Translations under genes and position numbers: made by a program | NCBI GenBank assembly: GCA_044892505.1 | Contig: CM097883.1 | Coordinates: 175,398,001 to 175,462,000 of the forward strand | Length of the DNA: 64,000 nucleotides | Reading direction: 5' to 3' | DNA from: Schmidtea nova | Lineage: Eukaryota | The notes under the pieces: model-generated | What the model was told of the DNA's origin: nothing | The model's database searches: none | The model's input: only the letters and a program-made list of their open reading frames with translations | Shown: positions 28,560 through 62,362 of the stretch, one piece after another | Layout: every line of letters begins with the position of its first letter | Numbering within the stretch: position 1 is the first letter of the stretch

Positions 28560-31310
28560 AACTACACAAGTTCAGCAAGACCTTCAGTTATTTTGTTTTA
28601 TAAAAAATTATTTGAAATCGTATTTTGCAAAATATGTAGATTCCAGAAAATTGGCGCAGCAAAAATTATGTTTTTGAATTCGTTGAATGTGTTGAAGTAA
28701 TAAAAAAAATTAATAAAATTCAAAATAAAATTATATTTATAACTAAATGAAGGAGAGATGTGAAAATCGAGTCAGGTATAGAATTGATAGTGTAAAGAAA
28801 TAAAAAGAGAACAAAGGCGTCAGAAAGTGTATCATTACGGGTGAAAAGCACAAAAATGTGAATTGTGAAAAATCGATAAAAGATTTAAATGTTCGAATTG
28901 AAATCTGGAAAATTGGTCATGGGGGAACAAGTAGCGAGGAATAACATGGTGATAACGGAATTTTCAGAAAGTGTCAAGAAGGGTGCGAAAAGGTACTTAG
29001 GAGTTAAAAACAAGAAAATGAAAGGAATTAATTAATTAATTAATTAACAAATAGAAAGAAATCCCGAGCTGGGTAAACAAAGAGAAAAGTAAACAGAAGG
29101 AAAATTTAGGCCCATTATCTGGTCACAATGATTAATGGGAGTAGGTCAAGAAAAGATAATATGTATAGAGAAGTCCAAGGCAGGCTATTAATTATTTTAT
29201 TTGGTCGGACCATTCCGGATGACAGCCGAGGCAGAGATGTGGAGCTGAATATCGGAACTGAGATTGGCTCAGCAAAACCCATTTGTCATCCAGATTTAGA
29301 AGAGTATAAAAGGAAGGGGAAAATCAGAACAAATTGGCAGTTTGCCTCAGCTAGGGACACGACGGAATTGAACTTAGAAAAGAGGAAAGGTAGAAAATAG
29401 GAAGTTAGGGAAAAAGAAAAGATAGAATCAGGAGATATTGAGGAAAACGAAAAGAGAATTAAATCGGAAGCGAATCTAATAAAATAAAGTAAAGAGGTGA
29501 ATCAAAGGAAGCTATTGACTAAAAAGGTGAATATTATTATAACTAATTGACAAAGAATCAATACCGAGCGGAGGATCGGTCAGACTCATAAAGACTTAGT
29601 TATTGATTATTTTGGGTTGAACGATATATTGTGTGATTCAATATACGTTAGGTAGTTTATTGTTTTGTTATTTACGATTAAAGGGACACGAGGAGTCAGA
29701 GAGTACCAACTCGAATATTAAAACCCAACAAATGTATCAATCACGTTTTCCAACAAGAAACTTTTAATGAAATAAGAATGGCACAATTTCATTGTTTTAT
29801 AGTGGATGAAAGCACTGATGTTTCAGTTAACAAAATGTTAATAATTTATATAAAATACCGGTTTGAATTTAATTACAAAACTGTTTTTGCTGGCATAATA
29901 CAGTTAAATTCATGTGACGCAAAATCGATTGTGGAGTCTATAAAATGTTTTTATAAAAAACTTAATCTGGATATGCAAAAGATGGTAATGTTAACATCTG
30001 ATGGAGCTGCAGTAATGTTGGGAGCTTATAATGGAGTTCCAGCACTTTTACCGCGAGAAACTTGCCACTTGACAGCTCAGCACTGTGTTGCTCATAGAGA
30101 AGATTTGGGAATCGATGATGTCTGGAAGGGTATACTTCTTATATCTCAAGTAGAAACGTTATTGCGAACTGTTTTGTACCATGTTCCATCGTTCATCTGT
30201 TAAAAACATCATTTTGAAGAAATGGCAAATCTAATGGATTGTGAAGCTTTGATGTTCCGACCTCTTATTGAAATACGCTGGCTTTCTCGTCATTTTGAGA
30301 TTATTCCGCTTATTCGAAATTATGACGTCTTGGTAGAATATTTCAAAGAAAAAATTGATAATTCAAATTCTGTTGATCGAACCGCGAAATACTGCTTTGC
30401 AGCTTTAAAAAATAATGTTAATCGTGTAACCTTGATCGCATTAAATGATGTTTTCACAAAATTGACAAAGTTATCAAAATATTTACAAAAAAGTGTTTTA
30501 TCACCAATGGAAGAGCATCAATATTGTAAATCGATCACAAAATTAAGAAGTCAGTACCTTGGTGATATAGTTTATTGGAGTGAGGATGTGAAAAAAAATC
30601 TCGAAGATGAAGGTAATAATAATATGCAAAAATTGTCTGGGATAATTCTATTTATTGAGAAATTATGCCACAATTTGGATAAAAGATTTCCTGATAGTGA
30701 CATGGACCTTTGGAATGCTTTTGATCAAAACGGCATTGTCAATACATCAGATTTTAATTATGGTGATGAAAATTTAAAAAAAAATAATATTGAAATATGA
30801 AGATCTCATCCCAAATATGAATAATAAAATAATAATGGAAGAGTATAAAGATTTAAAATATTTATTTACGGAAAAATTCAAAAATAATGGTCGTAATTTC
30901 AATGATCTACTTCAATTGGTTCTTCGTGAAGACTGTTTTCAAAATATAAAATATTTGTTTGATATTTGTGGAACCTTTCAAGCGTCGAGTGCTGATTGTG
31001 AAAGAGGTTTAAGAATGATGAATTTGATTAAAACAAAATTTAGAAATAGATTGGACGCTAATCATTTGAGTAACTTAATAAGAATAAAATCACACTTAGT
31101 TTCGGAAAATATTATTGATCTGGATAAAGTATACCATTACTGGAAGCGCAATAAAGACAGACGAGAAAAAAATAATCATGAACTTATATAAAAATAAATT
31201 ATGATTTTTCAAATAAAAAGAATTCCTAATTGCTTAATTTTTATTTAATTTTTTAATCGTGGCGCAATATTTTTTTTCTGCTCAGCTAAAAAAAATTAGA
31301 GGGAGCGTTG
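28560..31310 (+). mobile_element. hAT-B (DUF4371/ZNF862-like) transposon, frameshifted transposase
   Basis: VDESTD, SDGAAVMLG, HCVAHR, RWLS, SSADCERG...KTKFRNRL in ORFs 29778-31191; right TIR TTAGAGGGAGCGTTG ending 31310; left TIR not found. Confidence 0.88.
28690..29730 (+). mobile_element. Solo LTR (1041 bp) with AATG target-site duplication
   Basis: TGTTG...CAACA termini; AATG at 28686-28689 and 29731-29734; removing it restores the hAT-B frame (EFVECINHVFQQETFNEIRMAQF); TATAAAAG ~29305 and AATAAA ~29480. Confidence 0.85.
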
Positions 31311-33550: not shown

Positions 33551-35197
33551 CAAATAAGGACGGAGCGATCGAAAACATGATTAGTAGATTTTTTTTGTGG
33601 GAGAGGTATTACCTGTAATACAATAAGATGAGAGATGAGAGACAATTCATAATGGTAGCTAGTCATGCGAGTAGCGAGGCATTCTCAATTCGGACAACAT
33701 CAACAATCCCAAAGTTGATTCAAGCCAAAGCCGAACGTTACCTGAGATCATGGAGGCGGGGACATATAAACCTCGCGATCACAACAAACCGAGAGCAATT
33801 CCACACCAGGATAAGGTGGGAAGGTGACTCATCATGGCCTCTACCGGATTCAAGCAAACCGTTAGCCACTCGTAAATGGTTTATTCAATTTAAAGATGAA
33901 AACAATACATCCCGATGGCTACTGTAATGCACAGAAATGTTGGACAACAATTGTATTATGTTAACAATTTTGTTATTTTTATATTTTGTTGTAAGCGCCG
34001 TCATTATTATGGTCGGCTCCCTCACAGTCACCGAGGACCCCCCCCCTTTGTTGTTAATTGTTATTTTTGGGTTTTATAAAAAATTAGAAATTTTGAATTT
34101 TAAAATTTTAAATTAGCTTACTATAGCAAATAGCTATAGTAAGGCTAACAACAAAAAATTGAAAAAATTGATTAAGAATAAATTGCAGATAGTTAAAAGT
34201 AAATTGTTGCAAATATTAAAAGAAAATTACTAAAGAACATCCATTTTCCTACCAAATACTTTTCTATAAAATATCGTTATAATATCCGGATAAAAGGAAA
34301 CTTGACCAAAGTCAACTTCAATATCCTTTTCCTACCAAATATTTTTCAATAAAATATCGTTATACCGGATACAAGAAAACATAAACTAATTCGATTTATA
34401 AGAATATCACAAGAAAATCAAACTTTATCTCTGTACTACGTGAGTAACATTTTTGTTTTCCAAAAATATAGTTTATTGTTCGATATTTGTTAATTCGTTA
34501 TTTAATATTATCTTTGTTCATCACAGTAAATCCTACATTACACACAGGCACCCCAATTGTCCCCACAATAATTTTTGGGAGACTCTTGGGCACTTACAAA
34601 TCCCCAAGCACTCAACTAGTACTAGCCAAAATTAACCAACTCAAATAACCAATTCGCAAACATAACAGCTACTATCATTTATACCCATCTCGGGTCAAAT
34701 CTTTCAACAAATGAGCTTCATACTTCTGGAGCGACTAAGGGACATCCGCACTGGAGAGCTACGACCATACGCGAACTCTGGAAATGTAGATATGGATCAG
34801 GATCAGTGGGTGCCGGACATGCACTTGTGGGAGATTTTTATCTATAATGACCGGCTGTGTTGGAAGCCGTGTCCTGAATATTTCTGGGCGAATGGTATTA
34901 GGAAGATGGACAGCGAATGTGACCAAGAATGGGTCGAAGTTGATAAACTATAAGGAAATGCAAACGTGTTATGAGTGTGTTCTTTTTGAAATAAAAATTG
35001 TTGTCCATCTTCGTGTTCTGTTTTGATGAGGAATGATTGAATGATATTGTGACAAAAATGGAATGTTGTTTCGTAATTGAAGGTAGAATGAATAATGAAT
35101 AGGAGTGTAGATTGGGGATAAAACCGGGGTTGCGATACAAAAGGAGAGTTGTCAAGAGACATCGATAGGTCGTGCCTAATCGCCATATTAATTTCAG

Positions 35198-35764
35198 ATG
35201 GATCGAATAGCGACTAACTCAGACGCAGACGACAGCCGCCAGTTACAAAGGCGGATTAAACTACTGGAGCGACATATACATCGTCAGGAAGTGGAAATCG
35301 ACACTTTGAGGAAAACCTGGTTTGACCCCGAAAGGGTTAAGGCTATCCAACAGCATAGATATCGAGCAAAAAGAGCACTGGAAGAACAGGCACGAGAGAC
35401 AGCCGCTGTCCGGCTAGAGTTAAACAACTATCTGCGAGTATCAACCCGAAAATTCATTGAACAGCAGTTGCGACTGTTAATTCGAGCCAGCACTTTTGAT
35501 CACCGGGTAACTTTTACGCGTACAAGCAGCGAAACGCAAACAGAGGAAAACCTCGCACCTGTCATGGGGAAGGAAGCACAGAATACTAAATCAATACCAG
35601 AAGGGTCATCGCGGACAAAAAAGAGAAACCACCTGGGCGCGAAAAGACGCCGTGAAAGAAGGGCCTACGCGGAGAGGCTCGGGATCGAAGTCGATCTCCT
35701 AAGCGGGCTAACTGAAAAACAGCTCGTTAACGTTATTAACACGAATATATTTTTAGATAAATAA
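35198..35764 (+). CDS. 188-aa coiled-coil/basic protein of unknown function, probably TE-encoded
   Basis: Intact GC-rich ORF in AT-rich context; TTTCAG acceptor directly before ATG; heptad-rich N-term, SSETQT, KKRNHLGAKRRRERR. Confidence 0.55.
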   Translation: MDRIATNSDADDSRQLQRRIKLLERHIHRQEVEIDTLRKTWFDPERVKAIQQHRYRAKRALEEQARETAAVRLELNNYLRVSTRKFIEQQLRLLIRASTFDHRVTFTRTSSETQTEENLAPVMGKEAQNTKSIPEGSSRTKKRNHLGAKRRRERRAYAERLGIEVDLLSGLTEKQLVNVINTNIFLDK

Positions 35765-36053: not shown

Positions 36054-36539
36054 AAATCCGCATAAGTCTTCTATCGACAGCGGTGGACCCGTAGATAAAT
36101 GAGTGAATAGTAGCCGCAAGGTTGCTCACCTGCCTCATCATTCTACAACGGTGATACATTACCGACATGACGAGTAATTAGGGACGAGTCATGGGTATCA
36201 GCGGGGTGAATATTTTTATGTTGGTGAGATTTCCCTAATAATAGCATCAATAAAAATCTCTATTTAAAAACCATACCAACGAACCAGCAATAATATAAAT
36301 CCGCATAAGTCTTCTATCGACAGCGGTGGACCCGTAGATAAATGAGTGAATAGTAGCCGCAAGGTTGCTCACCTGCCTCATCATTCTACAACGGTGATAC
36401 ATTACCGACATGACGAGTAATTAGGGACGAGTCATGGGTATCAGCGGGGTGAATATTTTTATGTTGGTGAGATTTCCCTAATAATAGCATCAATAAAAAT
36501 CTCTATTTAAAAACCATACCAACGAACCAGCAATAATAT
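36054..36539. repeat. Exact 243-bp tandem duplication next to the gap (likely assembly artefact)
   Basis: 36054-36296 = 36297-36539; 75 bp from the N run. Confidence 0.85.
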
Positions 36540-46879: not shown

Positions 46880-47093
46880 ATAGTATTGTATTTATATTTA
46901 TTTATATCAAATTATATGACTCTTATAACGACATGAAAATTCGGAACTAATGATATAATCGAAAATGTTCATTTATCTCGTAATTCCCTTTCGCTCAATG
47001 ACCATCGTCTTTACCTCGCCGTGAAAGAAATCGCAAAGAAGTCGAAAAAATTATAAGCTCGTAAATAGCAACTCAATGAGTAATAGAAACGTC

Positions 47094-48091
47094 TGTTCGG
47101 TTCGTATCAGTGGTTTACGACGAACACAAAAAAAAATATATATATTTGATTTGATTATCGGACTCCAAACGATAATCCGCTTATATAATTATAAATAAAA
47201 TATATGTTTTAGGTTGGGTGTAAAGAAAACAAAACCTATTCTTTTTAATAAGATTTATTGCGATTTATGTATAACAATGTACAATATATTAAAATAAAAT
47301 AGCTGCAAAGCAAAAGTTAGAAAATCGGTTATTCAAACCGTCCTCAGAGTTTAAGAACGAAAGCTGGACCTAAAAGGCTCAACAGCTCCGACTAAATGAA
47401 AGGACAAAAGATGAGGGCTTTCCCGGTAGTTTAATCGCGATAGTGACAACCCAGAAATGGTTGTCACTGTGACCTAATAATTTCCCTTCTAATAATTTAT
47501 TATTTAACGAATTTACTGAAGGGGAAAAATAGTAATATAACTATTTCCCCGTGATCGATTTATAGAATTAAAGCAAACTAGAAAATTTACCAGCTAATAA
47601 AGATTATTCCAATTTCGGGAAATTATCACAAATGAAATTCAAGCTAAACTTCTCGTAATACTTCTGCCGTAAAAATTAATTTCTCCAATTCACAAATCTG
47701 TAAAACTTAGATTCTAAAATTCACTTCTGTCCAATTTATGTTTTGTAATTAGTTTAAATAGTAAAGTACTGCCTACACGGCCACGCACTAAAAGTTTACT
47801 ATTATTTTTAGTAATTCTTATTTACTATTTTTAATCTAAATTTATTATTATTATTACTATAATTAGTGTATATCTATTTAGAGCAGTTATTAATTACTAT
47901 ATTTATTTCTTTTCTATTTATAGTAATTATTTGTTACTAAAATTACTAATTAAGTATTTAATTATTACTATAATTATTATCTATCTATTTATAGTAATTC
48001 TTAATTGCTATTTATATTTATTTATTTATTTATAATATTTAATTACAAATTTATACAAAAACCCGAGATCCCTTGATCTCGAACCCTAACA
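47094..48091 (-). repeat. 3' LTR (998 bp)
   Basis: By eye identical to 60903-61903 except for a 1-nt shorter A run and one fewer TA unit. Confidence 0.97.
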
Positions 48092-48103
48092 TGTCTTCCC
48101 CCT
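48092..48103 (-). promoter_or_regulatory. Polypurine tract
   Basis: Minus strand AGGGGGAAGACA abutting the TGTT of the 3' LTR. Confidence 0.85.
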
Positions 48104-48396
48104 AACAAGATTTTCGTCCCGAAAATTAAAGCGGAAAAGGCAAGAAGGTTACGCAGCCAAAAATTAAAGAAAATAACAACACATACATATATACATAGAA
48201 TGCACTTGGCCAATAAAATAAAACAAAAATGAGTCTCATAAAACACATAATACATAAGTAATGTTAATCACAATCGATATCAAATAATAACTGTCTGTAA
48301 GCGTTGGATTGTTGATCGCATAGCCGAAATGCTAATTGTTTGATTGATAGTTGTCATAGCTTATAGCTAGACCTTGGATTGAACGTAGCAGAAATG

Positions 48397-50433
48397 CTAG
48401 TTATCCTTTGCGAATAGGTTTTGAGCTGCTCTCTTGCGAATATGCGCTTGCTCGTTCTTGATGCGATCTTCCACTATATCTGGTCTATAACTGACCACTA
48501 ATGTTTCGCGTGTTTCGACTTCCTTATATACCAAAGACGAAATCACGTATGATTTTCCGTTGGCCTCCAATACGCCATAGTAAGGGAAGTTTGAAACTGA
48601 TGATTGGTGTACCGGTTTCCCGTCGTATTCTTTTATCCGAGGTACCCAATTTCTCTCTGGTCGCTGCCAAAAACTAGGGTCTTCATTGTCCAAATCCTGG
48701 GGTGTCTTTGCTGAATTTCCTGTTCCAACGAAATCCCCTTCTCTTATAATAATAGGTTCGCCCTTAACCTCAGGAATCTGTTCCATATCGGGTGGAACGA
48801 ATGCTGTTTCGATTAAATCTTTGTCTTCCGTCGAGAGGAGATTTGGTACTTTCTTCTTGATCTTTAGATCTTGTAACCTTACAACAGGTTCTTGACTTTT
48901 CGTTGGGGGTGACTTTTCTACTGAAGTCAATTTTTTAAAAGTCTTAGTAACTTTTTCCAAGAGCTTGTTCTCTTTCTTTGGTGGATTTTCTGGCACGATC
49001 TTTGTAATTGTACGGCTGTCTCCGTGTAAAGTTAAACGCATCTCTGTTTGCTCCTCACCCTCGCTTTCGCAGGTGGCGTAATCGTCTTCATCAGCTAAGG
49101 ATATAGCTGGAGGGGATAGTGATTCTTCCTCAACTATCTTTTGCAATTTGGTTGATAATGGTTGTTCCTGGGGTAAGCTCTCAATAGCTTTCCTTTTACT
49201 CGTTTCTTGTGGCTGTATTGTATGAACCATTTTGACTTCTGATGTAATTGTCCCACTACGATTACCTGGGGTAATGTCATCTACCCAAACTTCTCTCAGT
49301 TTAAGGTAAATATTACGTGTCGTTTCCACGTCATTTTCCGTTTTCAGATCTGAACGGTTTAGTTCTTCCTTTTCGAGAATTGACTTTGATAAATACGCGA
49401 GTCGATAATGTCCGTTACATTTCTTTAGTTCTCTCGCTTCCAGGCATTTTGCTGCTCCTAGTTCCCTAATGCCCAAAACTCGTTGAGGGTGTAACTGGAC
49501 TGCTTCCAAGAAATCGTTGACTTGGAGACCTATTAGAATTTTCCCGTCACATAATTTTCTAATACGGTCTGCACAATCCTCTCCATCAAATTGTCCAATG
49601 ATTTCTTTTTCGGTCATACCATGCGCGTGCGATTGGTAATGTTTGACCTGGTTTCTGGGTGTAACCACCGTGTTTAATATTAAATCACCACAGTAGTTTG
49701 CTACCGAAACAGCCACCAAAGCTGGCTTTAAATAATCTCGCAAAGTTGCGTAATGCGCTGCAACAAAAATTGACAATCTATCTTCTTGATTGGGGTGCAG
49801 ATTCATCCGAACAAAGGATTTGAATGATTTGAGATCGTTCTCATTCACATTATAGGTCCAGGCAGGCTCATTTTTCCACAATGATTGCACTGCCTTGCTG
49901 GGTTCCAAAATCTCTAATACCACAATAGTATTATATCCGTCACATTGGATGGAGATATTCTTTTCTCTGCCATCTCCGTTACTAATTTCTAGAGTTGATT
50001 CTGGTTGAAGTAGGATGGGTCCTGTGGCTCCTGCCATGAAGATTGTAAAGGGTTTATTGATCGCGTGAATCAGGAGATGGTGAGTAAATGTTGATCTGTT
50101 AAATTCCGCCATGTGTTCAGTCAACCGGGTGTTCTCACGGCTGGTGATTGTGACTATGCACATTTGTCTCTTAGGTGATCCAAGAAACTTAAAATTGTTC
50201 GGGATGCCGGTGCAGTGCCCGTAATACCAATAGCGACGACCTTTCCGTGCCTCTGCGGATATCGCTTTTTCGATGTTTCGATAAATCAGTTTTTCCTTCT
50301 GTATTGTTTGCACATCGATAGTGCTGTAACGCTGCTTGTATTGTGACACTTGATGCTTCATATCTGAAAGAAAAATAATTAACGTTAATATCAGATATAC
50401 TGATATGCCAATATTGGCTAAAAAGAAATGCAT
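48397..50433 (-). CDS. ORF3 accessory protein (probable start ATG 50361, 654 aa): degenerate DEDDh exonuclease plus other domains
   Basis: ALVAVSVANYCGDLILNTVVTP...HGM...GKILIG...L..L...IL...ENDVETTRNIY follows the REX4/ISG20-type pattern; TTTTTCTTTCAG acceptor 2 nt before ATG 50361. Confidence 0.85.
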   Translation of the reverse strand: MHFFLANIGISVYLILTLIIFLSDMKHQVSQYKQRYSTIDVQTIQKEKLIYRNIEKAISAEARKGRRYWYYGHCTGIPNNFKFLGSPKRQMCIVTITSRENTRLTEHMAEFNRSTFTHHLLIHAINKPFTIFMAGATGPILLQPESTLEISNGDGREKNISIQCDGYNTIVVLEILEPSKAVQSLWKNEPAWTYNVNENDLKSFKSFVRMNLHPNQEDRLSIFVAAHYATLRDYLKPALVAVSVANYCGDLILNTVVTPRNQVKHYQSHAHGMTEKEIIGQFDGEDCADRIRKLCDGKILIGLQVNDFLEAVQLHPQRVLGIRELGAAKCLEARELKKCNGHYRLAYLSKSILEKEELNRSDLKTENDVETTRNIYLKLREVWVDDITPGNRSGTITSEVKMVHTIQPQETSKRKAIESLPQEQPLSTKLQKIVEEESLSPPAISLADEDDYATCESEGEEQTEMRLTLHGDSRTITKIVPENPPKKENKLLEKVTKTFKKLTSVEKSPPTKSQEPVVRLQDLKIKKKVPNLLSTEDKDLIETAFVPPDMEQIPEVKGEPIIIREGDFVGTGNSAKTPQDLDNEDPSFWQRPERNWVPRIKEYDGKPVHQSSVSNFPYYGVLEANGKSYVISSLVYKEVETRETLVVSYRPDIVEDRIKNEQAHIRKRAAQNLFAKDN

Positions 50434-50547
50434 AAATCTCGATTTACGGGATCTACTTATGCTGTAAGTTAATGCTACTCGGAGCTCAACAAGATTATAG
50501 ATTTTAATATATATATAAATACAAATATGCGATTTTATCTGTAATTG

Positions 50548-53500
50548 TCATAATCTCGTCATCATAATCCCATCAACCGACTCAATAGCCTGATTGAAGA
50601 ATAATTTCATCCAAACTCCCATTGCTATCAATGTAGTGATCATAGCTAATACTGCTGACGTAATAATCCATACCCCAATGGGTAATTTTCCCAAGTGAGT
50701 AATGGGGTTTACTTCATTAATTCCACACTGACAACTTTTAATATAGCTTTCTGTTGATACCGTTGGTTTTACCATTTTCAATCCTTTCAATCTCTGCCAT
50801 ATTGCAGGATGAATGACGTAACTTTCTTTCCGTATCAAGGATGTAACTGATTTCGTTGTCGTCGATGATTGAGGTAATTTCAAAGAGATTACTTCATAAA
50901 ATACCTCATTCCATTCATCGACTCCGGGCTTTTGTTTATTATTCATATAAGTGATATGAGCTTCCCACTCCACTGAGCTGTTCCACTTGAGATTTTGTTT
51001 CTCAATATCTTCGTTTAGCCACAATTCTTGTACTATTTCCTTGTCGGAGTGGATTTCTATCTTTACTCCATCCACTCCTTGTTTTGGTTGACTGAAGGTA
51101 ATCATACCTTGTTGGATATTTATCCTAACTTTCCTTTTGAAATCTGCTGTCTTCAGCTTCCATTGTGACTTGGAAAAATCTGACCATCGTCCAAACATAA
51201 AATGTTGAACAAGTATATCTAATAAATATTCCTTTTCTGCTCGTAAGTCCTTTATGACTTTCACTCTTGTGTTTGAATCCAATGTAAAATGGAAACAACG
51301 TCGTTCACAAAACGAGAACTTGAATTTGGTATCATTTTCAGCTAATGATATTATCCTAAATTCCTGGAAAGATCTTCTGAATGCGAGATCTTGGATTTGT
51401 ACCGCTGTTGGAACAAATGTTTTTACACATGATATGAGGCAACTTATTATTACCAAAAACGTAACTGATTTTGGCACGCCTCTTGATCGTAATGGATATC
51501 GGTCTGAGACTGTTTCTGACCCTTTATTCTCCTTTTTCTTAATCGAATCTTTCTCCGTGACCGCAACCTTCTTGCATCTGTTAGCATGTACCATTATTGG
51601 TTCAGCTTTTCTATTTGCTACTAATTGCAAGATTAAATTCGTGTCTGTGGTTCTCAAAACCTCATACGGTCCTTTGAAGTTTCTCATTAATTTAGGTGAT
51701 AAGCCCTTTTTATTATAATGGCTTTCCAACATCACCTTGTCTCCAACTAACATGCCATGTCCTTTGGCTTTCTTATCATGATAATCTTTCGACGCTTCCT
51801 GACTGAATTTTATACTAAGACCTGCTTTTGTCCATGCTTCTTGCATTCTTTCTCTCATTTCCATGAGATAATCCTCTTGGTCTAAATACTGCGTTGCTTT
51901 TGGGAAAAACAACAAGTCTATAGGCATTTTACTTTGCCTTAAATACATGAGATAGAACGGCGTTTGTCCCGTACCCTCATGAACAGCATTTCTGTATGCG
52001 AATAAGCATGATGGAATATGTATATCCCAATCCGTTTGCCCTGAATTTACGTATGATGCTAGCATATTTGCGAGCGTTCCGTTAAATCTCTCTACCAATC
52101 CGTCTGTTTGTGGATGATACGGAGAGGTATTCAATTTTAAAATGTCGAAATAATCATTTATTCCTTTTAACAGATTACTCATGAAATCTGCTCCTCTATC
52201 TGTTAGTAGTTTTGTAGGTACTCCATACCTAAAAACAATTTGCTCTACGAAAATCCTGGCTATCGTATCTGCCTTGTGATTCGGTATCGGATAAGCCTCC
52301 GGCCATTTTGTCAGGTAATCGCAAAATACCAATATGTATTTGTTACCACTATTTGATTCTTTGAATGGCCCTAAAACATCCATTGCCGTCATTTCCATCG
52401 GTGTGGATGGTACTGGCATTGGTTTCATTGGTACATGAGGTTTCTTCCCCGTATTTCTTCTGGTGATACAGATCTTACATGTCTGACACCATTCCTGTAC
52501 GTCTTGTTTGATTGTCGGCCAGAAAGATTTCTGCTTCAACCTTGACAATGTTTTCCTGGAAGACAAATGCCCTCCCAGTGCTCCATCATGATATTGTAAC
52601 ATCAAAGCTTCGCGATATTTCTTAGGGACCATTATGACATTATCCCTTACATCCACATATTTGACTAATCCTTCTTCTAAGATAAATTTGTCTCGATTTT
52701 TCTCCCAATATTTATTAAATTCCGTCGGTATGAACTTTGCTTCTAAAGCCTGTCTGATTTGGTTTATCTCTTCATCCGATTGTTGTGCTGCCATTAAATC
52801 CGCGAGTCTGTTTGCTTCTCTTGTAAGTGCGAAGATTGTTCCTTCTAATCTTCCTTCTTTGACATCTTCTGCTTCATCACCCTGGTCCATTCGAGAAAAT
52901 GCATCTGCATTCCCATTTTGATGTCCTTTTCGGTAATGTATTTCGATGTCGTACGGCTGCAAGATTAATGCCCATCTAACCAATTTTGATGTATCCATAG
53001 TATGCTTTGTTAACCACTGTAATGGTCTATGATCCGTATACACAATGATCTTTCGACCCCATAAATATGTCCTGAATTGGTGTATAGCATACACAATTGC
53101 TAATGCTTCTAATTCGATAACTGCGTAATTCTTTTCATGTGGTTTTAATCCTCTGCTAGCATACGCTATGGCATATTCGTCTCCTAGGTCATCTCTTTGA
53201 CCTAACACAGCACCAATACCCCGAGTGCTGGCGTCTGTCATGACCAAAAATTGTTTCTCAAAATCTGGGAACCGTAATATAGGAGGTTCCACGAGCATCC
53301 TCTTTAGCATATCAAATGCTTCCTGTTGCTCTTTTCCCCATACAAATTTGACATTTTTGCCCTCTAATTGTGTTAAAGGAAATGATATTGCTGAAAAGTT
53401 CCTGATGAACTTCCTGTAATATCCCACTAAGCCCAGAAACCCTTTAATATGTTTGACTGTCTTTGGCTCTGGAAAATTCTTTGCTTTCTCAACATTTGCT

Positions 53501-55068
53501 GGATCTGGTTTTACTCCATCCTTCGAGATAATGTGACCGACATAGACTACCTCTGATTCGGCCCATTTACATTTCGATGGTTTTACCTTAAGATTTGCAT
53601 TAATTAACCTTTTGAATACGTCCTCTAAATGTTCTAAATGTTTTTCCAAATCTGGAGAAAATACTATGATATCATCTATGTATACCATTGCATGATGAAC
53701 ATCCATTAACATTAGATTCATGGCTCTTTGAAACGTTGCCGGCGCTCCTGTGAGACCAAATGGCATTACTGTATATTCGAAGTGTCCAAGGCTTGTAGAA
53801 AAAGCCGTAATTGGTATTGTCTCCTCTTTTAACTTGATTTGGTAAAATCCCTTCTGAGCATCCATCACTGAGAAATATTTTGAATTTCTCCTGCGTCCGT
53901 AAATGTAATCCAGTAATGGTAATGGGTGACTATCCTTGCAAGTTGCTTCGTTTACCATTCGATAGTCGTTGCATAGTCGTACCGTTCCATCCTTTTTGGC
54001 CACCACTATCATTGGTGACTGGTATGGTGATTTACTATGCCTGATGATGTTATGTTTTAACATCAGTTTTACCTGCTTATCGACAGGTTCTTCCAAGCTA
54101 AACGGAATTCGATACGGTCTCAGTTTTATTGGTTTCGTATTGTTAAGAACAATTTCATGTTCCAACAAATTCGTCTTTCCCAAATCATATTCGTGCTTGG
54201 CGAATACCTGATCATATTTTCTTAATAACATGTTGACTTGGATATTCTCTCTTCGTGAAAGAGCTTTACTATTTGCCGTTGGCGCATCATAGTACTCGAT
54301 GTCTGGTTCTCTATTCTCTGCCTTCACTGTCAGGACAGATCCCCCAATCGGTAATTGATCCGACTTTGATACTCTCCCTACTCTTGTATCTGGATACAAT
54401 TTTAATGGTTTTATATCTAAATTGGCTACCCGAATTGGTATTCTGCCATTTTCAACTTTACCAACGCTATGCGTAATTGGTAGATTATATTTTGCTGAGA
54501 ACCTTTCATCTGGTTCGAATACTACTTCTCCTTCCCACTGTTTGCTAGTAGACACGAAACATACTGTTTCTGCTCTGGGTGGTATTATCATCGTATGGTC
54601 GATGAAAACTGTATCATCATTATAAACTTTTCTTTTCTTACCGATTGATCTAACTAACAATCCGGTAGCACAGTCAAATACAACTCCTTTTAATCTTCTT
54701 AAAAGATCCATTTCTAGTAGACATTCTACTGGACAAGTTCTCATGACTATAATATCATGACGAAATTCTTGGTCACATAGCTTGATGTTGCAAGCTAGAG
54801 TACCGATAATATTCAAGGATGTGCCTGTAGCACCTGTTAGCGAAACTCTTGAGGTTTCCATTGATTCCAATTCTTTTTGATTTAATAGTGTTGCCTCTAT
54901 GATAGTGCCGTCTGCTCCTGAATCTATCACTGCATTAACTGTGTGTCTGTTTATTTTTATCTTTATCATGGGTTTCTTATCCAAGTTTACCCCATTTGCC
55001 ATCAAAATAGTAGCATGCGTTATCCCGATGGTATTTGCTCTGAATTTCTCTGCTTCATCTGCTATCAC
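50548..55068 (-). CDS. pol: Pol polyprotein: aspartic protease, RT, RNase H, integrase, plus C-terminal type I membrane protein
   Basis: IDSGA; RLCNDYR, MPFGLTGAPATFQR, YIDD; TDAS...ELEALAI; HHCC, DVLGP, TDRG, DGLVERFNGTL, GPY; frame opens at GTG right after a TGA, first ATG at 55002. Confidence 0.97.
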   Translation of the reverse strand: MIADEAEKFRANTIGITHATILMANGVNLDKKPMIKIKINRHTVNAVIDSGADGTIIEATLLNQKELESMETSRVSLTGATGTSLNIIGTLACNIKLCDQEFRHDIIVMRTCPVECLLEMDLLRRLKGVVFDCATGLLVRSIGKKRKVYNDDTVFIDHTMIIPPRAETVCFVSTSKQWEGEVVFEPDERFSAKYNLPITHSVGKVENGRIPIRVANLDIKPLKLYPDTRVGRVSKSDQLPIGGSVLTVKAENREPDIEYYDAPTANSKALSRRENIQVNMLLRKYDQVFAKHEYDLGKTNLLEHEIVLNNTKPIKLRPYRIPFSLEEPVDKQVKLMLKHNIIRHSKSPYQSPMIVVAKKDGTVRLCNDYRMVNEATCKDSHPLPLLDYIYGRRRNSKYFSVMDAQKGFYQIKLKEETIPITAFSTSLGHFEYTVMPFGLTGAPATFQRAMNLMLMDVHHAMVYIDDIIVFSPDLEKHLEHLEDVFKRLINANLKVKPSKCKWAESEVVYVGHIISKDGVKPDPANVEKAKNFPEPKTVKHIKGFLGLVGYYRKFIRNFSAISFPLTQLEGKNVKFVWGKEQQEAFDMLKRMLVEPPILRFPDFEKQFLVMTDASTRGIGAVLGQRDDLGDEYAIAYASRGLKPHEKNYAVIELEALAIVYAIHQFRTYLWGRKIIVYTDHRPLQWLTKHTMDTSKLVRWALILQPYDIEIHYRKGHQNGNADAFSRMDQGDEAEDVKEGRLEGTIFALTREANRLADLMAAQQSDEEINQIRQALEAKFIPTEFNKYWEKNRDKFILEEGLVKYVDVRDNVIMVPKKYREALMLQYHDGALGGHLSSRKTLSRLKQKSFWPTIKQDVQEWCQTCKICITRRNTGKKPHVPMKPMPVPSTPMEMTAMDVLGPFKESNSGNKYILVFCDYLTKWPEAYPIPNHKADTIARIFVEQIVFRYGVPTKLLTDRGADFMSNLLKGINDYFDILKLNTSPYHPQTDGLVERFNGTLANMLASYVNSGQTDWDIHIPSCLFAYRNAVHEGTGQTPFYLMYLRQSKMPIDLLFFPKATQYLDQEDYLMEMRERMQEAWTKAGLSIKFSQEASKDYHDKKAKGHGMLVGDKVMLESHYNKKGLSPKLMRNFKGPYEVLRTTDTNLILQLVANRKAEPIMVHANRCKKVAVTEKDSIKKKENKGSETVSDRYPLRSRGVPKSVTFLVIISCLISCVKTFVPTAVQIQDLAFRRSFQEFRIISLAENDTKFKFSFCERRCFHFTLDSNTRVKVIKDLRAEKEYLLDILVQHFMFGRWSDFSKSQWKLKTADFKRKVRINIQQGMITFSQPKQGVDGVKIEIHSDKEIVQELWLNEDIEKQNLKWNSSVEWEAHITYMNNKQKPGVDEWNEVFYEVISLKLPQSSTTTKSVTSLIRKESYVIHPAIWQRLKGLKMVKPTVSTESYIKSCQCGINEVNPITHLGKLPIGVWIITSAVLAMITTLIAMGVWMKLFFNQAIESVDGIMMTRL

Positions 55069-55414
55069 TCAATTTTGGATTATATTCCTTGAATTTAGCT
55101 TTTATTGCTTCTAACGACTCGATAGGATACAGTTTCCCTTCATTTTCTAACGATAATGATATGCTTTTACCTGTTTCTCGAGCATCTTTGTCGGGAATTT
55201 GTTGATGTTTAGAAATGTACATTTTGTTTCTTGGTATGGTTAAAGCATAACTTGGCTTGCCTTCTCCTGATGTCTTTTGAAACTCTGGCGATTCCCCCTT
55301 TGGTGCTGTTGGTAAGCTTCTAAGATATGGCAATTGCATATATCTTGGGCTTCTTTTCAATCTAGGCGATGTTGTATTTAATTGCAAATTTCTGGTCTGC
55401 ACTATCGTATTCAT
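55055..55414 (-). CDS. 119-aa linker ORF overlapping the end of ORF1 and the start of pol
   Basis: Overlaps ORF1 by 53 nt and pol by 14 nt; preceded by a TTTCAG acceptor; no recognisable domain. Confidence 0.45.
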   Translation of the reverse strand: MNTIVQTRNLQLNTTSPRLKRSPRYMQLPYLRSLPTAPKGESPEFQKTSGEGKPSYALTIPRNKMYISKHQQIPDKDARETGKSISLSLENEGKLYPIESLEAIKAKFKEYNPKLSDSR

Positions 55415-58400
55415 CTTCTGAAATCATACTTTTGTCGAAAATCTGTTTTGTCGCTTCGTAAGGTGGTTGATAATCTCGATATTTCATTTTCCTTAATTGA
55501 TGATTCGGTTTTTTATTGTAGTTTCTTTTTCGACTTCTACTTTGCCTCTGAACTGTATTAAGAGAGTCTCCATTACCTCCTCCTTCCGAATTGTTATCGT
55601 CCCGATAACTTGTATTACCCTCCATTTCGATTCCAATAATCTCGTGTTTTACCAAGCTTCTCTGTTTGATTGTCTTTATTTCTTTACGATGATGTTTAAA
55701 CAATGCAAATTCCGCACACATAGGACACAATCCTAGTATCAACTTCCAAGACCATCCACCGATTTTGAATATGCTGTATGTGGAAATTAATTGTGTTATT
55801 ATTAACTTTAGAATTACGAATATTGCATATATTCCGGAGCAGCCTGCCACGAATATACCAAAATTGGTAAACCTTCCCCATATTTTCATCATCACATTTT
55901 TAGCTGCTTCTTTATAATGATCTGGACCGAATAATAAATTGTAATCTGGTCTCATTTCGTTTGCTTGGTAAATTGTTCTTATGATTTCAGTGATACCTCT
56001 TTCTCTTACTTGAGGGAATAGCAATGTCTGTCTTGCCTCCTCAATGTCTGCTGGAGTGTAAATTCCTCCTTGTGATAATTCATCGAGTGATTTAAATTCC
56101 ATGTTTTCCTCGAGTTTCGTGACTTCTAATGTTTCCACCTTTCTATTAGATGGTTTTCTGTCAGGTAATGAGATCCATCTATCATTTACCTTGTATAACG
56201 GTGATATTGCTGGATTGCAAATTGAAGGTTGAGGCTTTTGTTTTTCATCCAAAAGTCTCCTCGTTACTGGCATTACAAATCGTATTTTGTTTTGATATGA
56301 CACTGGTAATTCTAGAGTACATTCGTTATACCGTGTTAATTGTACCTCTATGGGTTGACATTGATAGCTGTATATAGCTTCCCCCATAATTCTGCCAAAC
56401 ATTCCATCTTCTAGCAACATAGGTGTCACTAGATCCGGATTCACGATTGATATCGCTAATCGATTTCGAACTATTTCGCGATTTAGTTTGCAATCATTGA
56501 GTATTACTTCCTGATACATTTCCTGCATTTGTCCTTGCAGATCATGATATAAATAATCTATTTTATTATTTATATAGTTCGTGATTTTGATATCCTGGCT
56601 GTGAATATTCTTGGCTTTTTGGATAAATGTTTTTGACAAATATAATCCTTTATAGTTGGTCTCGTACACCACTTTTCCGCATTTTGTCTTCTTATCTTTT
56701 CTGACAAATCTGATTGCATCTTTCTTATCTTCTGATACTAATACTAGAGGTGTGATTTCCTCACTAATATCCTCTTTTTGCTGTTTGTTGATCCTTTTCA
56801 ACGTCTTTTCTTTATCCCAAATTCTTTCTCTTTTGGGTAAATCTCGATACTTTGTCCCGTTCAACTTATGGAAATTAATTTTCTTTAGTAATGACAATTC
56901 GCAATGGTCTAGTATTTGATCGTATAATAATGTAATGACCCCTGTTCTGCAGCTTCCAAATTTCGCAAGGCACTGAGGGTGTGCCATTAATCTTCCTGAT
57001 AATACATCGAAAGTTCCTTCGTATTCTCTTAATTCGATTGAATAGTCCTCGATATCTACGACAAAACTTACCAACTCCGATCCGCGAGTTTTCTTTCTTC
57101 CCGTACAGGTACCATCTGATCCGATTGATCCTCCTCGTGTAATGGTTACTCCCAGTGTTTTTCCTACTTCCGCGGCGATGGTTACCTCGTTATCGATTCT
57201 TAAAGTACCTTTTCGAAAGGCGTCTAGACAATCCTCTGGTAATATGTTGACAGGTCTAGGTATTAGAGTGGCTGATAGAAAAGCTGTATAGCTGTGTGAA
57301 CCACAATAATATTCAAATGTCGCTCTTTGGACTCTACATTCTCTTATCTTAGTTCTGAAGAATTCACTTTCTTGGTAGACATAGTATTCGACCTTTTCTC
57401 CTGTTTGGACTTTCTCTGGATATGCCTCTTTGCACTCAATTGCATCCACGAGCGAATATATCCGAGCTAACTTTGGATCACTGCAATCAAACGCTGTCAT
57501 TGTGTTTGTCTGTTTCATTATCCCCATCATTACTAAAAACATTAATATCATATTCGTCATATTCCCCATTCCTCCATTTCCGAGGTGGTTGTTATTCATA
57601 ACCTCTTCCACAAATTCATATCGTGGTTTATGTTTCTCCTCTTCCCAGAAATTATTTTCACTCATCCACGTTCCGAGATAATGCTCCGTTATCTCCGTGA
57701 TCTGGTCTATTTCTCGATTAATAAGTTTCTTCTCATTGCCTGCGCGGGCTAAGGCATCTTGAATCAACATAGATAATGCTGTCACTATTTTTCCTTTAGA
57801 TAACCCATCTTGTATGAGTGTCTCTAACATACTCTGTATCTCGTTTTGAGGTACCATTTTAGGTAATCTCCTCATCGTCTTCGCGATTGACTGTGTCACT
57901 TTATCCACTTGAATTCCTTTAATCCGAGTGATCTGCCATTCCGGCTTTAATATTCCTATGATCTGTTTTAATCTCTTCCATGTCAGAGATTTTTCTGGTA
58001 TATGTACTCCCTCGTCTCTCATATCAACATCCCTGGCTATTCCTGACAGGGTTTTCATCTGAACCTGTTTAATGGTTTCTTGGTTTAATTGCTCCGTTGG
58101 GGGAGGTTTCATTTGATCTTTCCTAGGCCTTCCTCGCCTATCTTTCTTTGTCTGCCATGCTGGCCTGATAGTTTCTACCGCCTGAGAAGTTGAAGCTCCC
58201 ACGTTAGTTTCCTCATTATTGAGTCTGATTTCTTCTTCTCCGTGATTATCGGCATCGATATCTACATTAAATGGTTGTGTTTCGACGTTACCAGTGACCA
58301 TTTCATCTGGTAACCGTAATGCTGACCATTGAGATTCAGGTGGCTCTACGGGAATGATTGCTACCGTTGTAGTTTCAAATGGTAGACATCCCACATCTAC

Positions 58401-60821
58401 TAAATATTCATCATCATCCACTTGTCCTCCATGAATCATAATCAAGAATATACCGGTAGTCTGCCCAGTATCTATTAAATCTTTTCTCAACGTTATCACT
58501 TTGCTAAAACAACGATATAATCTCGTCATGGGTTCTTTTCCCGCTATTCGAATGTCTAAAGTTATCATGCCTTGTCGGTGTGCTTGATGACGTATTGCTG
58601 TTCCATTTTTCCTCATTAACATTTTTATTTCTGTTTGAAAAGAACTAGTTTCTTTTACTACAGGTAGTAATATAGGAATTATACTCTCCAATGATTCTAC
58701 TGGTATGCGCAATACCAACATCCAGTCTAATATTTCCTTGATTGTTTCTCCATCCCTCGGAGATTTCTGCAACTCTATCTTTAGACGTTGCTCTATTTGT
58801 TGGACTTCCTCCAACTGTGCAATTTCCATTTGTGTGAGTAGAAACACACTGTCTTGATCCACTACTGGGACCGATATTCCTGTCAGTTTTGTTGTGAGTT
58901 TCGTTACCCTTCCTGGTAATACACCATTTTGTAGTAGTGTTTCCCCAACTACTAACTTTTCTCCATATAGATAAAAATCATATCTATTATGTTTCAATTT
59001 CATCATTGTATCTGACAACTTATCTGTTCGACATCTTACATTCATGTCGATGTTAAACTCCTGCTCCTGAGGAAGTTTTATGTTTAAATGCGAATCCTGA
59101 AGATCCCATTCATGCTCCATTGCTGTTCCTATCTTTCGTAGGATTCTGTGTATGTCGCTATGATACTTTGGATCATCTTCGACCTGAGATATTAACTGTA
59201 ATATCTTTCCAATTTCACTATTCTTGATATCACCTTGTGATAATTTCTCTAATTCTCTAGTCAGTCTCTGCTGATACTCATATCTGGAATCCACCAGTTT
59301 TAAACATTTTGCTAGGGTATCTGACCCTTTCTTGGCCTTTGTTTCCTTGAACAAAGCCTGGTCGAACTCGCTCAGTATGGTACTCATACTGGGTTCGTCA
59401 TCATTATCAGAATTTGTTTCTGATTCTATTACCTCATGATTCTCGCTGCTGGAATCCATGGGTTCACTATTTCCTTGCTCGTCTGTGTAAGCATCATAAT
59501 TTTTCTCAGCTGAAATCATCAAAACTGTTCCTTGCCCAACTGTGTGAGCATCATCGCTTTCCTCAATGGGATTCATTATAACTGTTCCTCGCCCATCCAT
59601 GTGAGCATGATTTTTCTCAGCTGAAATCATAAAAACTGTCTCTTGCCCAACTGTGTGAGTCTCATTCTTTTCCTCTATTGTATTCATCAAAACTGTTCCT
59701 CGCTCATCTGTGTGAGCATGATTTTTCTCAGCTGAAATCATAAAAACTGTATCATCTCGATCCATTAGCCGTGCTAATCGATTTTTCTCCTCCTGGATTT
59801 CCATTTCCAGTTGTTGCAAATACGTCAATTCTTTATCGTGATTGACCATGAACGTAGTTTTTGGCTTGCTGATATTACCACCATTGGTAGTCCTATTATT
59901 CGTATTATTACTCTGATTTTGAGGACACGACCTCAGGATATGCCCGAATTTTCCACATCCGTGGCATTTTATCTTTCCTGATGAATTTACATCATCCCTT
60001 TTTATATTAAAATTCCCATTCGTTGGGAGATTCCTAACTCTACAAACGGAAGCAACATGCCCTCTGCGTTTGCATTTATCACACTGCAAGTTCGTGACTC
60101 TACAGTTCTCAACACTATGATTATTCATACCACATTTAGTACACTGAATACCCCTACGAGTATCAGCTACCTTCTTACTGTGGCAATCTTTTGATATATG
60201 CCCCTTCTTATGGCAGTTAAAACATTCAATTGCTGGCTTCTCATTATTTACCATAAATGAGGTAGCCTTTTCTAAGCTGCTTTCGATTACGACAGCTTTT
60301 CTTGTTAATTCCCAAAAATCATCTCCCGTGTGGAGAATCAATGCATTTCTCATTACATTTGTGAATCCAGCTAATAATTGGTCTTTAACCATAGCTTTAG
60401 TTGCATCATTCCAGGTAGTTCTGAGCCCAAATGCTCTTTCGGCTAATAACAATAATTGATAGGAAAATTCTCCTACATGCTCATTGGCATTCTGTTTTCT
60501 ATGGTAAAATTGTTGTCGGAAAATTCTGCTTGAATCTCCCGGTAATATTCTAGCCGTTAGTGATTCTCTCATCTTTTCCCATGTAGCTGGTTTATCTGCT
60601 GCTGGTAACGCCATAATATCATTGTAGTTTTCCCTTGCCATACCCTTAAGGTAAATTGGCAGTCTTTGTATCATTATTGCATCTGGATACCCATAGGCCT
60701 TTGCCATCTGATAATACTCTGACATAAACTCCGGAAATTCCCCTGGATCTCCGCTAAATGCCTTGACAGGTAAAGCGGGATATCTAGCAAAAACATTATT
60801 CTCTTCAGCCATGTCCTCCAC
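55362..60821 (-). CDS. gag: ORF1 (1819 aa): Gag capsid, 4 CCHC knuckles, spacer with UBL-like domains, chuvirus-type glycoprotein
   Basis: Capsid FSGD...Q..NEHVGEF; CX2CX4HX4C x4 at aa 200-299; internal hydrophobic signal aa ~1088-1108; AFDC, YCGSHS, GEAIYSYQC...ECTLELPV; TM at aa ~1651-1675. Confidence 0.95.
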   Translation of the reverse strand: MEDMAEENNVFARYPALPVKAFSGDPGEFPEFMSEYYQMAKAYGYPDAIMIQRLPIYLKGMARENYNDIMALPAADKPATWEKMRESLTARILPGDSSRIFRQQFYHRKQNANEHVGEFSYQLLLLAERAFGLRTTWNDATKAMVKDQLLAGFTNVMRNALILHTGDDFWELTRKAVVIESSLEKATSFMVNNEKPAIECFNCHKKGHISKDCHSKKVADTRRGIQCTKCGMNNHSVENCRVTNLQCDKCKRRGHVASVCRVRNLPTNGNFNIKRDDVNSSGKIKCHGCGKFGHILRSCPQNQSNNTNNRTTNGGNISKPKTTFMVNHDKELTYLQQLEMEIQEEKNRLARLMDRDDTVFMISAEKNHAHTDERGTVLMNTIEEKNETHTVGQETVFMISAEKNHAHMDGRGTVIMNPIEESDDAHTVGQGTVLMISAEKNYDAYTDEQGNSEPMDSSSENHEVIESETNSDNDDEPSMSTILSEFDQALFKETKAKKGSDTLAKCLKLVDSRYEYQQRLTRELEKLSQGDIKNSEIGKILQLISQVEDDPKYHSDIHRILRKIGTAMEHEWDLQDSHLNIKLPQEQEFNIDMNVRCRTDKLSDTMMKLKHNRYDFYLYGEKLVVGETLLQNGVLPGRVTKLTTKLTGISVPVVDQDSVFLLTQMEIAQLEEVQQIEQRLKIELQKSPRDGETIKEILDWMLVLRIPVESLESIIPILLPVVKETSSFQTEIKMLMRKNGTAIRHQAHRQGMITLDIRIAGKEPMTRLYRCFSKVITLRKDLIDTGQTTGIFLIMIHGGQVDDDEYLVDVGCLPFETTTVAIIPVEPPESQWSALRLPDEMVTGNVETQPFNVDIDADNHGEEEIRLNNEETNVGASTSQAVETIRPAWQTKKDRRGRPRKDQMKPPPTEQLNQETIKQVQMKTLSGIARDVDMRDEGVHIPEKSLTWKRLKQIIGILKPEWQITRIKGIQVDKVTQSIAKTMRRLPKMVPQNEIQSMLETLIQDGLSKGKIVTALSMLIQDALARAGNEKKLINREIDQITEITEHYLGTWMSENNFWEEEKHKPRYEFVEEVMNNNHLGNGGMGNMTNMILMFLVMMGIMKQTNTMTAFDCSDPKLARIYSLVDAIECKEAYPEKVQTGEKVEYYVYQESEFFRTKIRECRVQRATFEYYCGSHSYTAFLSATLIPRPVNILPEDCLDAFRKGTLRIDNEVTIAAEVGKTLGVTITRGGSIGSDGTCTGRKKTRGSELVSFVVDIEDYSIELREYEGTFDVLSGRLMAHPQCLAKFGSCRTGVITLLYDQILDHCELSLLKKINFHKLNGTKYRDLPKRERIWDKEKTLKRINKQQKEDISEEITPLVLVSEDKKDAIRFVRKDKKTKCGKVVYETNYKGLYLSKTFIQKAKNIHSQDIKITNYINNKIDYLYHDLQGQMQEMYQEVILNDCKLNREIVRNRLAISIVNPDLVTPMLLEDGMFGRIMGEAIYSYQCQPIEVQLTRYNECTLELPVSYQNKIRFVMPVTRRLLDEKQKPQPSICNPAISPLYKVNDRWISLPDRKPSNRKVETLEVTKLEENMEFKSLDELSQGGIYTPADIEEARQTLLFPQVRERGITEIIRTIYQANEMRPDYNLLFGPDHYKEAAKNVMMKIWGRFTNFGIFVAGCSGIYAIFVILKLIITQLISTYSIFKIGGWSWKLILGLCPMCAEFALFKHHRKEIKTIKQRSLVKHEIIGIEMEGNTSYRDDNNSEGGGNGDSLNTVQRQSRSRKRNYNKKPNHQLRKMKYRDYQPPYEATKQIFDKSMISEDEYDSADQKFAIKYNIA
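59440..59760 (-). repeat. In-frame 111-bp (37-aa) tandem repeat in ORF1, ~2.5 copies
   Basis: CTCAGCTGAAATCAT at 59505, 59616, 59727; protein TVFMISAEKNHAH..RG / TV(L/I)MN.IEE...HTVGQ. Confidence 0.95.
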
Positions 60822-60881
60822 AACTTTTGTCTTTTTAGGAGCTATTTTGTATATAACAATATGTTCACTGATAATAATTGT

Positions 60882-60899
60882 ATCACGTCGGGCTCACCA
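60882..60899 (-). promoter_or_regulatory. Primer-binding site, tRNA-Trp-like
   Basis: Minus strand TGGTGAGCCCGACGTGAT, 3 nt from the 5' LTR; differs at one position from the tRNA-Trp PBS TGGTGACCCCGACGTGAT. Confidence 0.85.
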
Positions 60900-60902
60900 A
60901 AA

Positions 60903-61903
60903 TGTTCGGTTCGTATCAGTGGTTTACGACGAACACAAAAAAAAAATATATATATATTTGATTTGATTATCGGACTCCAAACGATAATCCGCTTATATAA
61001 TTATAAATAAAATATATGTTTTAGGTTGGGTGTAAAGAAAACAAAACCTATTCTTTTTAATAAGATTTATTGCGATTTATGTATAACAATGTACAATATA
61101 TTAAAATAAAATAGCTGCAAAGCAAAAGTTAGAAAATCGGTTATTCAAACCGTCCTCAGAGTTTAAGAACGAAAGCTGGACCTAAAAGGCTCAACAGCTC
61201 CGACTAAATGAAAGGACAAAAGATGAGGGCTTTCCCGGTAGTTTAATCGCGATAGTGACAACCCAGAAATGGTTGTCACTGTGACCTAATAATTTCCCTT
61301 CTAATAATTTATTATTTAACGAATTTACTGAAGGGGAAAAATAGTAATATAACTATTTCCCCGTGATCGATTTATAGAATTAAAGCAAACTAGAAAATTT
61401 ACCAGCTAATAAAGATTATTCCAATTTCGGGAAATTATCACAAATGAAATTCAAGCTAAACTTCTCGTAATACTTCTGCCGTAAAAATTAATTTCTCCAA
61501 TTCACAAATCTGTAAAACTTAGATTCTAAAATTCACTTCTGTCCAATTTATGTTTTGTAATTAGTTTAAATAGTAAAGTACTGCCTACACGGCCACGCAC
61601 TAAAAGTTTACTATTATTTTTAGTAATTCTTATTTACTATTTTTAATCTAAATTTATTATTATTATTACTATAATTAGTGTATATCTATTTAGAGCAGTT
61701 ATTAATTACTATATTTATTTCTTTTCTATTTATAGTAATTATTTGTTACTAAAATTACTAATTAAGTATTTAATTATTACTATAATTATTATCTATCTAT
61801 TTATAGTAATTCTTAATTGCTATTTATATTTATTTATTTATTTATAATATTTAATTACAAATTTATACAAAAACCCGAGATCCCTTGATCTCGAACCCTA
61901 ACA
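60903..61903 (-). repeat. 5' LTR (1001 bp)
   Basis: See 3' LTR. Confidence 0.97.
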
Positions 61904-62362
61904 CGTCTACATTGTATTATCCTTTCAGATCATACTCGATATTATACAATTGAACTTTACTTCAAGTTGCAAACATTATTAACTGAAACTTCTGAAAATT
62001 GTATCTAAAATTTTAGTATTCGAAACTCTCAAAAAACATGTCTTGAAACTTTATATATAAAAATTTTTGTTATTATCAAAAAATTCGCATATGATCGAAT
62101 CTAATTTTTGGAAAAATAAAAATTTATTTTTATAATAATATATTATGTAAAAATTTAGATTAAATTATTAGAATATAAAAATTTAAAATCGTAAATTTTA
62201 TTACTATATTAGAATATAAAAAAATCTTTTAAATCAAAATCTTTATTATTATATATATTTTAAAGAATTTCAAATTTAGTTTTATGTAGAAAAATTATAT
62301 TATAATTATAATTTTATTTTTAAAATTATTACCTTTCACAACATCACGAAATAATAATACTT

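Follow-up and report, generated by a model that had tools for sequence, protein, structure and literature searches.

What are two ubiquitin-like (UBL) segments doing between the nucleocapsid and the glycoprotein of a retroelement polyprotein? The segments lie in a 64,000-nucleotide stretch of the Schmidtea nova genome, referred to here as the window, and a first-pass annotation had taken them for captured modules that recruit ESCRT or the proteasome, or for decoys. Both are encoded by a 14.8-kb LTR element of the gypsy type that spans 47094-61903 (-). ORF1 of this element starts at the Met at 60812 and encodes 1816 aa in the order capsid, zinc knuckles, UBL region and Monjiviricetes-type fusion glycoprotein. 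The features of the element are as follows:

47090-47093 and 61904-61907, target-site duplication, 4 bp
60903..61903 (-), 5' LTR, about 1.0 kb, with TG...CA ends
60882..60899 (-), primer-binding-site-like 18-mer, adjoining the 5' LTR
60258..60812 (-), Gag capsid region, ORF1 aa 1-185; weak Pfam Retrotrans_gag match (E 0.078), 63% identity to a second family
59913..60227 (-), nucleocapsid; its CCHC zinc knuckles number four by eye, two scored by Pfam
59438..59716 (-), imperfect coding repeat (family D5, 111-nt period) present three times within a variable linker
59118..59324 (-), helical bundle A, three helices in the predicted model; shortened homologue of bundle B
58872..59099 (-), UBL1, predicted beta-grasp without di-Gly; its last strand continues into a hairpin toward unit 2
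58587..58823 (-), helical bundle B, four predicted helices
58344..58571 (-), UBL2, predicted beta-grasp without di-Gly; the acidic loop matching ubiquitin positions 52-58 is conserved
58119..58148 (-), AT-hook-like basic motif, ORF1 aa 889-898 (hand count)
57588..58055 (-), Bcl-2-like domain, Pfam Bcl-2 E 0.019 in the window copy
57498..57560 (-), apolar segment, likely an internal signal or anchor for Env; found by eye, under the hydropathy threshold used
55668..57497 (-), Env, Monjiviricetes-type fusion glycoprotein, Pfam PF24664 E 2e-90; transmembrane helix at aa 1653-1671
55055..55423 (-), Env-to-protease linker, its frame broken twice in the window copy
50548..55068 (-), Pol: protease, RT, RNase H, integrase and tail
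48397..50547 (-), ORF3 frame with an ISG20L2-like exonuclease domain (PDB 7yw5, E 3.2e-5)
47094..48091 (-), 3' LTR, with a polypurine tract just inside

The protease-RT-RNase H-integrase order, the LTRs with TG...CA ends, the polypurine tract, the short target duplication and the primer-binding-site-like 18-mer, which may resemble the 3' end of tRNA-Trp, place the element in Ty3/gypsy (Metaviridae). Its two LTRs differ solely by a 3-base length change in a simple run, and the insertion is therefore young. When the genome was searched with the segment, 144 of 1760 candidates were scored as matches, 105 of them with 65-100% identity and the other 39 with 48-50% (hand count). About 22 of the 105 family matches, also counted by hand, sit in open frames of 3446-3453 aa, indicating that Gag, Env and Pol are normally made as one polyprotein. 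In the window copy this long frame is left at two points in the Env-protease interval, near 55381 and 55061. Following integrase, the Pol frame (50551-51470, -) has two transmembrane-like segments at pol aa 1201-1219 and 1464-1482, about 245 aa apart; this tail resembles a second small membrane protein and has no Pfam match. In ORF3, the first acidic motif of the exonuclease domain appears by eye to be lost, and an acidic low-complexity tail follows the domain.

Pfam, PDB and word-seeded homologue searches with the single sequence of the segment returned no match, fold prediction from that single sequence gave no usable model, and a narrow UBL2 profile did not match ubiquitin. Matches in a feature atlas, of the segment to ubiquitin clusters (0.77-0.81) and of the helical bundle to unnamed clusters, were treated as leads only. 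A high-confidence predicted model runs in the order helices (aa 497-565), UBL1, hairpin, helices (aa 664-742) and UBL2. Both UBLs are predicted to be beta-beta-alpha-beta-beta-beta folds with the ubiquitin hydrophobic core, the two units are joined via the long strand and hairpin into one body (model pTM 0.73), and a structure search with the module returned matches filled by UBL folds. A profile of unit 2 scored unit 1 at 22 bits and a profile of bundle B scored bundle A at 14.6 bits, each above 200 of 200 shuffles, and comparison of the UBL1 and UBL2 profiles gave an E of 0.0019. Direct pairwise comparison of the two UBLs, with segments 3 residues off, did not rise above shuffles (101/500). 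The unit-2 profile scores together with the match between the UBL profiles indicate that one module was duplicated, the first copy having lost a helix. We put at about 0.95 the probability that the element is a compact, Burro-like member of gypsy whose Gag-Env-Pol polyprotein contains a [helical bundle + UBL] module in two tandem copies, and that the segments are, as the model predicts, the ubiquitin-fold halves of these copies. The two UBLs of the first-pass annotation are thus borne out by predicted beta-grasp folds and profile evidence alike. The helices described there as flanking them are present as well, but they are part of the repeated module rather than mere flanks.

To place the duplication in time, a tree of units was built from 28 rows, with one locus entered twice and several long branches. 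In it the four first units from the Schmidtea nova genome form one clade (support 97/88), so the duplication is older than the split of families that are now 76% identical in RT. The module was found in all 22 sequences that reach the region, out of 23 sequences or fragments scored, and core positions are conserved; because these homologues were gathered via the module profile, presence in all of them is partly circular. The families covered by this count have RT identities of 44-76%. One or two copies of the module lie upstream of Env in every related family examined: a single unit occurs in those families whose frames run to about 3000 aa (L058, L059, L073, L086-L088), and two units are found in each of the outside proteins P0003 and P0009.

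Variation within the family points to purifying selection of uneven depth. Synonymous and replacement changes are expected at a ratio of roughly 1:3 without selection. Among 29 sister copies, the distinct variants were 8:6 in UBL1, 29:4 in the hairpin plus bundle B and 17:7 in UBL2, making UBL1 the part with the weakest depletion of replacements. Summed pairwise pN/pS was 0.02-0.08 across the sister copies, the pairs not being independent, and dN/dS was 0.10-0.20 between the two subfamilies L062 and L063. Two decaying copies gave noisy dN/dS values of up to 0.78 for UBL2.

The closest published system is Burro/GYPSM1, a group of giant gypsy-like retrotransposons from planarians, for which the accessible part of the description (PMC6431247) places a Ubi2/SUMO-like motif (PF11976) between MATH and BCL-2, and an env in frame between BCL2 and protease. 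A single UBL upstream of BCL2 and an in-frame env is therefore already known, and the first-pass remark that such domains are not known from gypsy Gag does not hold. The window element shares with Burro/GYPSM1 a CCHC Gag, a UBL, a BCL2-like domain, a mononegavirus-like env in frame and the PR-RT-RH-IN order. The core order of UBL, BCL2-like domain and in-frame env between gag and pol is present in the sister copies; the window copy is broken after env. In contrast to the more than 30 kb and about 4900-5100 aa given for Burro/GYPSM1, the window element has 14.8 kb and about 3450 aa. It lacks the MATH/TRAF, BIR and ankyrin domains of Burro/GYPSM1 (no Pfam match in three frames), both of its UBLs come with a helical partner for which the available Burro/GYPSM1 description has no counterpart, and unlike Burro/GYPSM1 as described there it has an exonuclease-like ORF3 and a post-integrase membrane-protein tail. 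The spacer between PR and RT is long enough for a dUTPase-like domain and has no Pfam match; the published Burro call needed HHpred.

GAG-ENV-POL errantiviruses with an HSV/gB-type Env have been described in Platyhelminthes, Nematoda and Bryozoa (PMC13524379, seen in part). They resemble the window element in gene order, in their class III-type envelope and in being young multicopy insertions, and the PF24664 match likewise places a class III-type fusion glycoprotein between gag and pol in the window element. The words 'ubiquitin', 'bcl' and 'burro' are absent from that report's main text in the form available, so these accessory domains go unannotated there, and its supplements may list the window family. 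We class the element among the GAG-ENV-POL errantiviruses, as a compact member resembling Burro rather than as Burro proper.

The genome is AT-rich, and its elements appear to resemble the set described for planarians. They include a giant Burro-like element (L103-L102-L097) with the module at the corresponding place. It encodes Gag, knuckles, UBL-like stretches, the basic motif, a Bcl-2-like domain, Env, Pol, ankyrin and a TRAF-like ORF, and its RT is 44% identical to that of the window element, compared with 40% for an env-less gypsy. Its last helical-UBL unit has a weak profile match (domain E 0.015) and is 37% identical to the unit of another locus, L091, which scores 32 bits with the module profile and has a weak PF11976 match. 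From its position in the element, and from the giant element, we infer that Burro's published motif is the same module. The published annotation, in its accessible part, presents the SUMO-like motif as one oddity among many in a giant element. TRAF and ankyrin cargo is confined to the giant type and the module is not; the module is a core part and not optional cargo. Together with the basic motif and the Bcl-2-like domain, this suggests a minimal accessory kit of the whole Gag-Env-Pol lineage, including its compact 15-kb members. Among LTR elements we found such a domain described only in PMC6431247, and found no published description of the helical partner, the tandem duplication or the lineage-wide presence, in a literature coverage that excluded subscription journals and Repbase reports.

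Several further observations concern these larger relatives. In both L103-L102-L097 and L105-L104-L100, ankyrin repeats follow integrase and a RING-TRAF-MATH ORF lies downstream. The 400-aa ORF after the giant's TRAF-like ORF has no Pfam match in the scanned copy, and 399-aa frames elsewhere carry BIR. At L091 (753-6176, -), the helical-UBL unit is followed directly by protease and ankyrin and then by a TRAF-like ORF, with a BIR match alongside; no RT or Env was seen in 40 kb, and the locus is possibly a non-autonomous derivative. A dense cluster of MATH-domain frames occupies G000:C2 405-455 Mb, near one chromosome end.

How far the UBLs still look like ubiquitin on their surface bears directly on what they might do. 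Identity to ubiquitin is low, at 8/75 and 10/72 positions. Ubiquitin positions 23, 26, 43, 45, 47, 50, 56 and 69 retain their residue class in the alignment, and positions 8, 48, 70, 72 and 74-76 do not. Terminal di-Gly is found in 0/20 aligned rows, as the first-pass annotation had noted for the two segments. As their sequences stand, the UBLs cannot be conjugated, nor cut by di-Gly-specific proteases, and it holds true that this gypsy Gag-Env polyprotein contains captured ubiquitin-fold domains that cannot be conjugated. They might nonetheless serve the precursor as a ubiquitin tag of its own, attracting ESCRT to the budding site or directing the precursor to proteasomal breakdown. A ubiquitin fusion to Gag can substitute for late domains, an enveloped element must have some way to bud, and the fold is truly that of the ubiquitin superfamily. 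G47 is also retained, and the I44 position in UBL2 is Met, Tyr, Leu or Ser, with Met in 9/22 rows, and is often hydrophobic. However, the equivalents of L8, V70, K48, R72 and R74 are lost in both UBLs, and I44 is replaced by Tyr, Gln or Asn in UBL1. By sequence position, then, the L8-I44-V70 patch of UIM/UBA/UEV or proteasome-receptor mimics is missing, and we infer that the UBLs would be weak substitutes for ubiquitin at receptors that recognise the I44 patch. Since neither this patch nor K48 is kept, the recruitment of ESCRT or the proteasome by ubiquitin mimicry that was first proposed appears quite improbable.

Integral (type II) UBLs (TINCR, ubiquilin/Dsk2, Rad23, OASL and the Rad60/NFATC2IP SUMO-like domains) are 6-25% identical to the element UBLs, and no one donor family stands out. 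Unlike these integral UBLs, each element UBL is fused behind a helical bundle, and the proteasome-binding patch of Dsk2/Rad23 is absent. A different ubiquitin fusion was seen at L074 (2157-7001, -; G000:C1:391.87 Mb), where an intact ubiquitin ending in di-Gly is fused just upstream of a BEL/Pao-type Gag-protease frame, with an Hsp70 fragment before the ubiquitin. This L074 BEL/Pao family, of which one copy was examined, may account for most of the 150 PF11976 matches found in long frames.

A different set of positions is conserved in the last unit. It comprises 27, 52, 54, 55, 58 and 60, with conservation in 14-21 of 22 rows, and also position 63. The acidic loop of this last unit, conserved and apparently exposed, suggests a binding surface, though it could instead pack on the helical bundle. 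The loop weighs against a purely structural role, in which a rigid helical-UBL arm without a host partner would serve as spacer or folding aid in Gag and set the distance between capsid and membrane. Such a role would suit the joining of both units into one predicted body, a number of units that varies from one to two, and a polyprotein that is membrane-anchored C-terminal of Gag. Further UBL-like stretches, seen by eye in the Gag region of the giant element, would fit as well. We regard it as unlikely.

Our tentative preference is for a non-conjugated binding adaptor that, with the AT-hook-like motif, would hold the replication complex on AT-rich chromatin. In this view, the polyprotein would be inserted in the ER membrane by the apolar segment that precedes Env, leaving CA-NC-module-Bcl2 in the cytosol, since the module is upstream of the first membrane segment. 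The element protease would then free the module, which, being encoded in the Gag frame, would be packaged in the same proportion as Gag. For partner binding the module may use the helical bundle and the acidic loop instead of an I44 patch, and the basic motif may bring it to DNA, by analogy with retroviral Gag-derived tethers. MLV p12 and foamy-virus Gag are chromatin tethers of this origin. The basic motif is kept in the three families compared and lies 3' of the module in most long homologues seen, and GC in the window outside the element is about 30%. However, the AT-hook assignment is weak, with Pfam AT_hook matches in homologues only (E 0.24 and 0.027), and family L059 lacks the motif by eye. 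Also counted against the tether are the often hydrophobic I44 position of UBL2, the weak depletion in UBL1, the 0.78 between decaying copies and the partly circular sampling. A self-encoded chromatin or integrase adaptor would, if true, be unusual for a retroelement. In any case, the module is a small, well-folded unit of 170 aa that can be expressed alone, so the role of Burro cargo becomes testable.

The domain that follows the basic motif points in another direction. The first-pass inventory was correct for the UBLs, but the Bcl-2-like domain after the module went unmentioned. This domain passes the Pfam cut-off in sister families (E 2e-7), its family profile matches Bcl-xL (E 3e-6), and the BH1 glycine and BH2 tryptophan are invariant in 6/6 rows, as would be expected of a Bcl-2 family member. 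The signal segment of Env follows it immediately and could at the same time anchor the domain in the membrane. The adjacency of this domain and the TRAF/BIR cargo of the giants hint at host death and ubiquitin signalling and argue against the tether. A possible, if rather doubtful, alternative is a host-control decoy, in which the module, linked to the Bcl-2-like domain, would occupy an E2, ligase or protease via a non-canonical surface and dampen ubiquitin/SUMO-dependent death or immune signalling. The low identity to ubiquitin makes for poor mimicry, and a decoy leaves the fused helical bundle and the basic motif unexplained.

The helical bundle has no match among PDB sequences, and no relation to the neighbouring Bcl-2-like domain was found. 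With its length of about 80 aa and similar helix-loop spacing, we take it by eye to resemble the TFIIS-N/LEDGF integrase-binding domain. If it were a captured domain of this type, the element would encode its own LEDGF-like cofactor in Gag (integrase-binding bundle, UBL and AT-hook) and steer integration to AT-rich chromatin without a host tether. One host LEDGF-like stretch (L118) does score above 200 of 200 shuffles, at 8.6 bits, but the other eight of nine host TFIIS-N/LEDGF-type domains do not beat shuffles, which also counts against the tether itself. The profile-profile probability was 0.4%, under that of an unrelated control, four helices are called in bundle B versus five in TFIIS-N/LEDGF-IBD, and no element frame occurs among the 52 PF08711 and 3 PF11467 matches in the genome. 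We give this capture only a slim chance. About 29 of the TFIIS-N (PF08711) matches in the genome form a tandem array at G000:C1 216.19-216.25 Mb, mostly about 1.2 kb apart.

ATG5 was considered as a relative of the whole module, since in it, too, a helical domain separates two beta-grasp domains, and it was matched by Foldseek at E 2e-6. Homology was rejected: the TM-score is 0.24-0.26 and the rmsd 22-24 Å (about 23 Å), showing that the arrangement differs from the compact UblA-HR-UblB of ATG5. The architecture of the module also stems from duplication of one unit, unlike that of ATG5.

Elsewhere in the window, a perfect 243-nt tandem duplication (36054-36539) lies beside a 190-aa frame (35192-35761) with no Pfam match. 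Fragments of DNA transposons were found at 22897-23946 (-), 25376-25834 (+), 29682-30797 (+) and 1015-1797 (-), with matches to a hAT dimerisation domain, MULE transposase, DUF4371 and, weakly, family-B polymerase.
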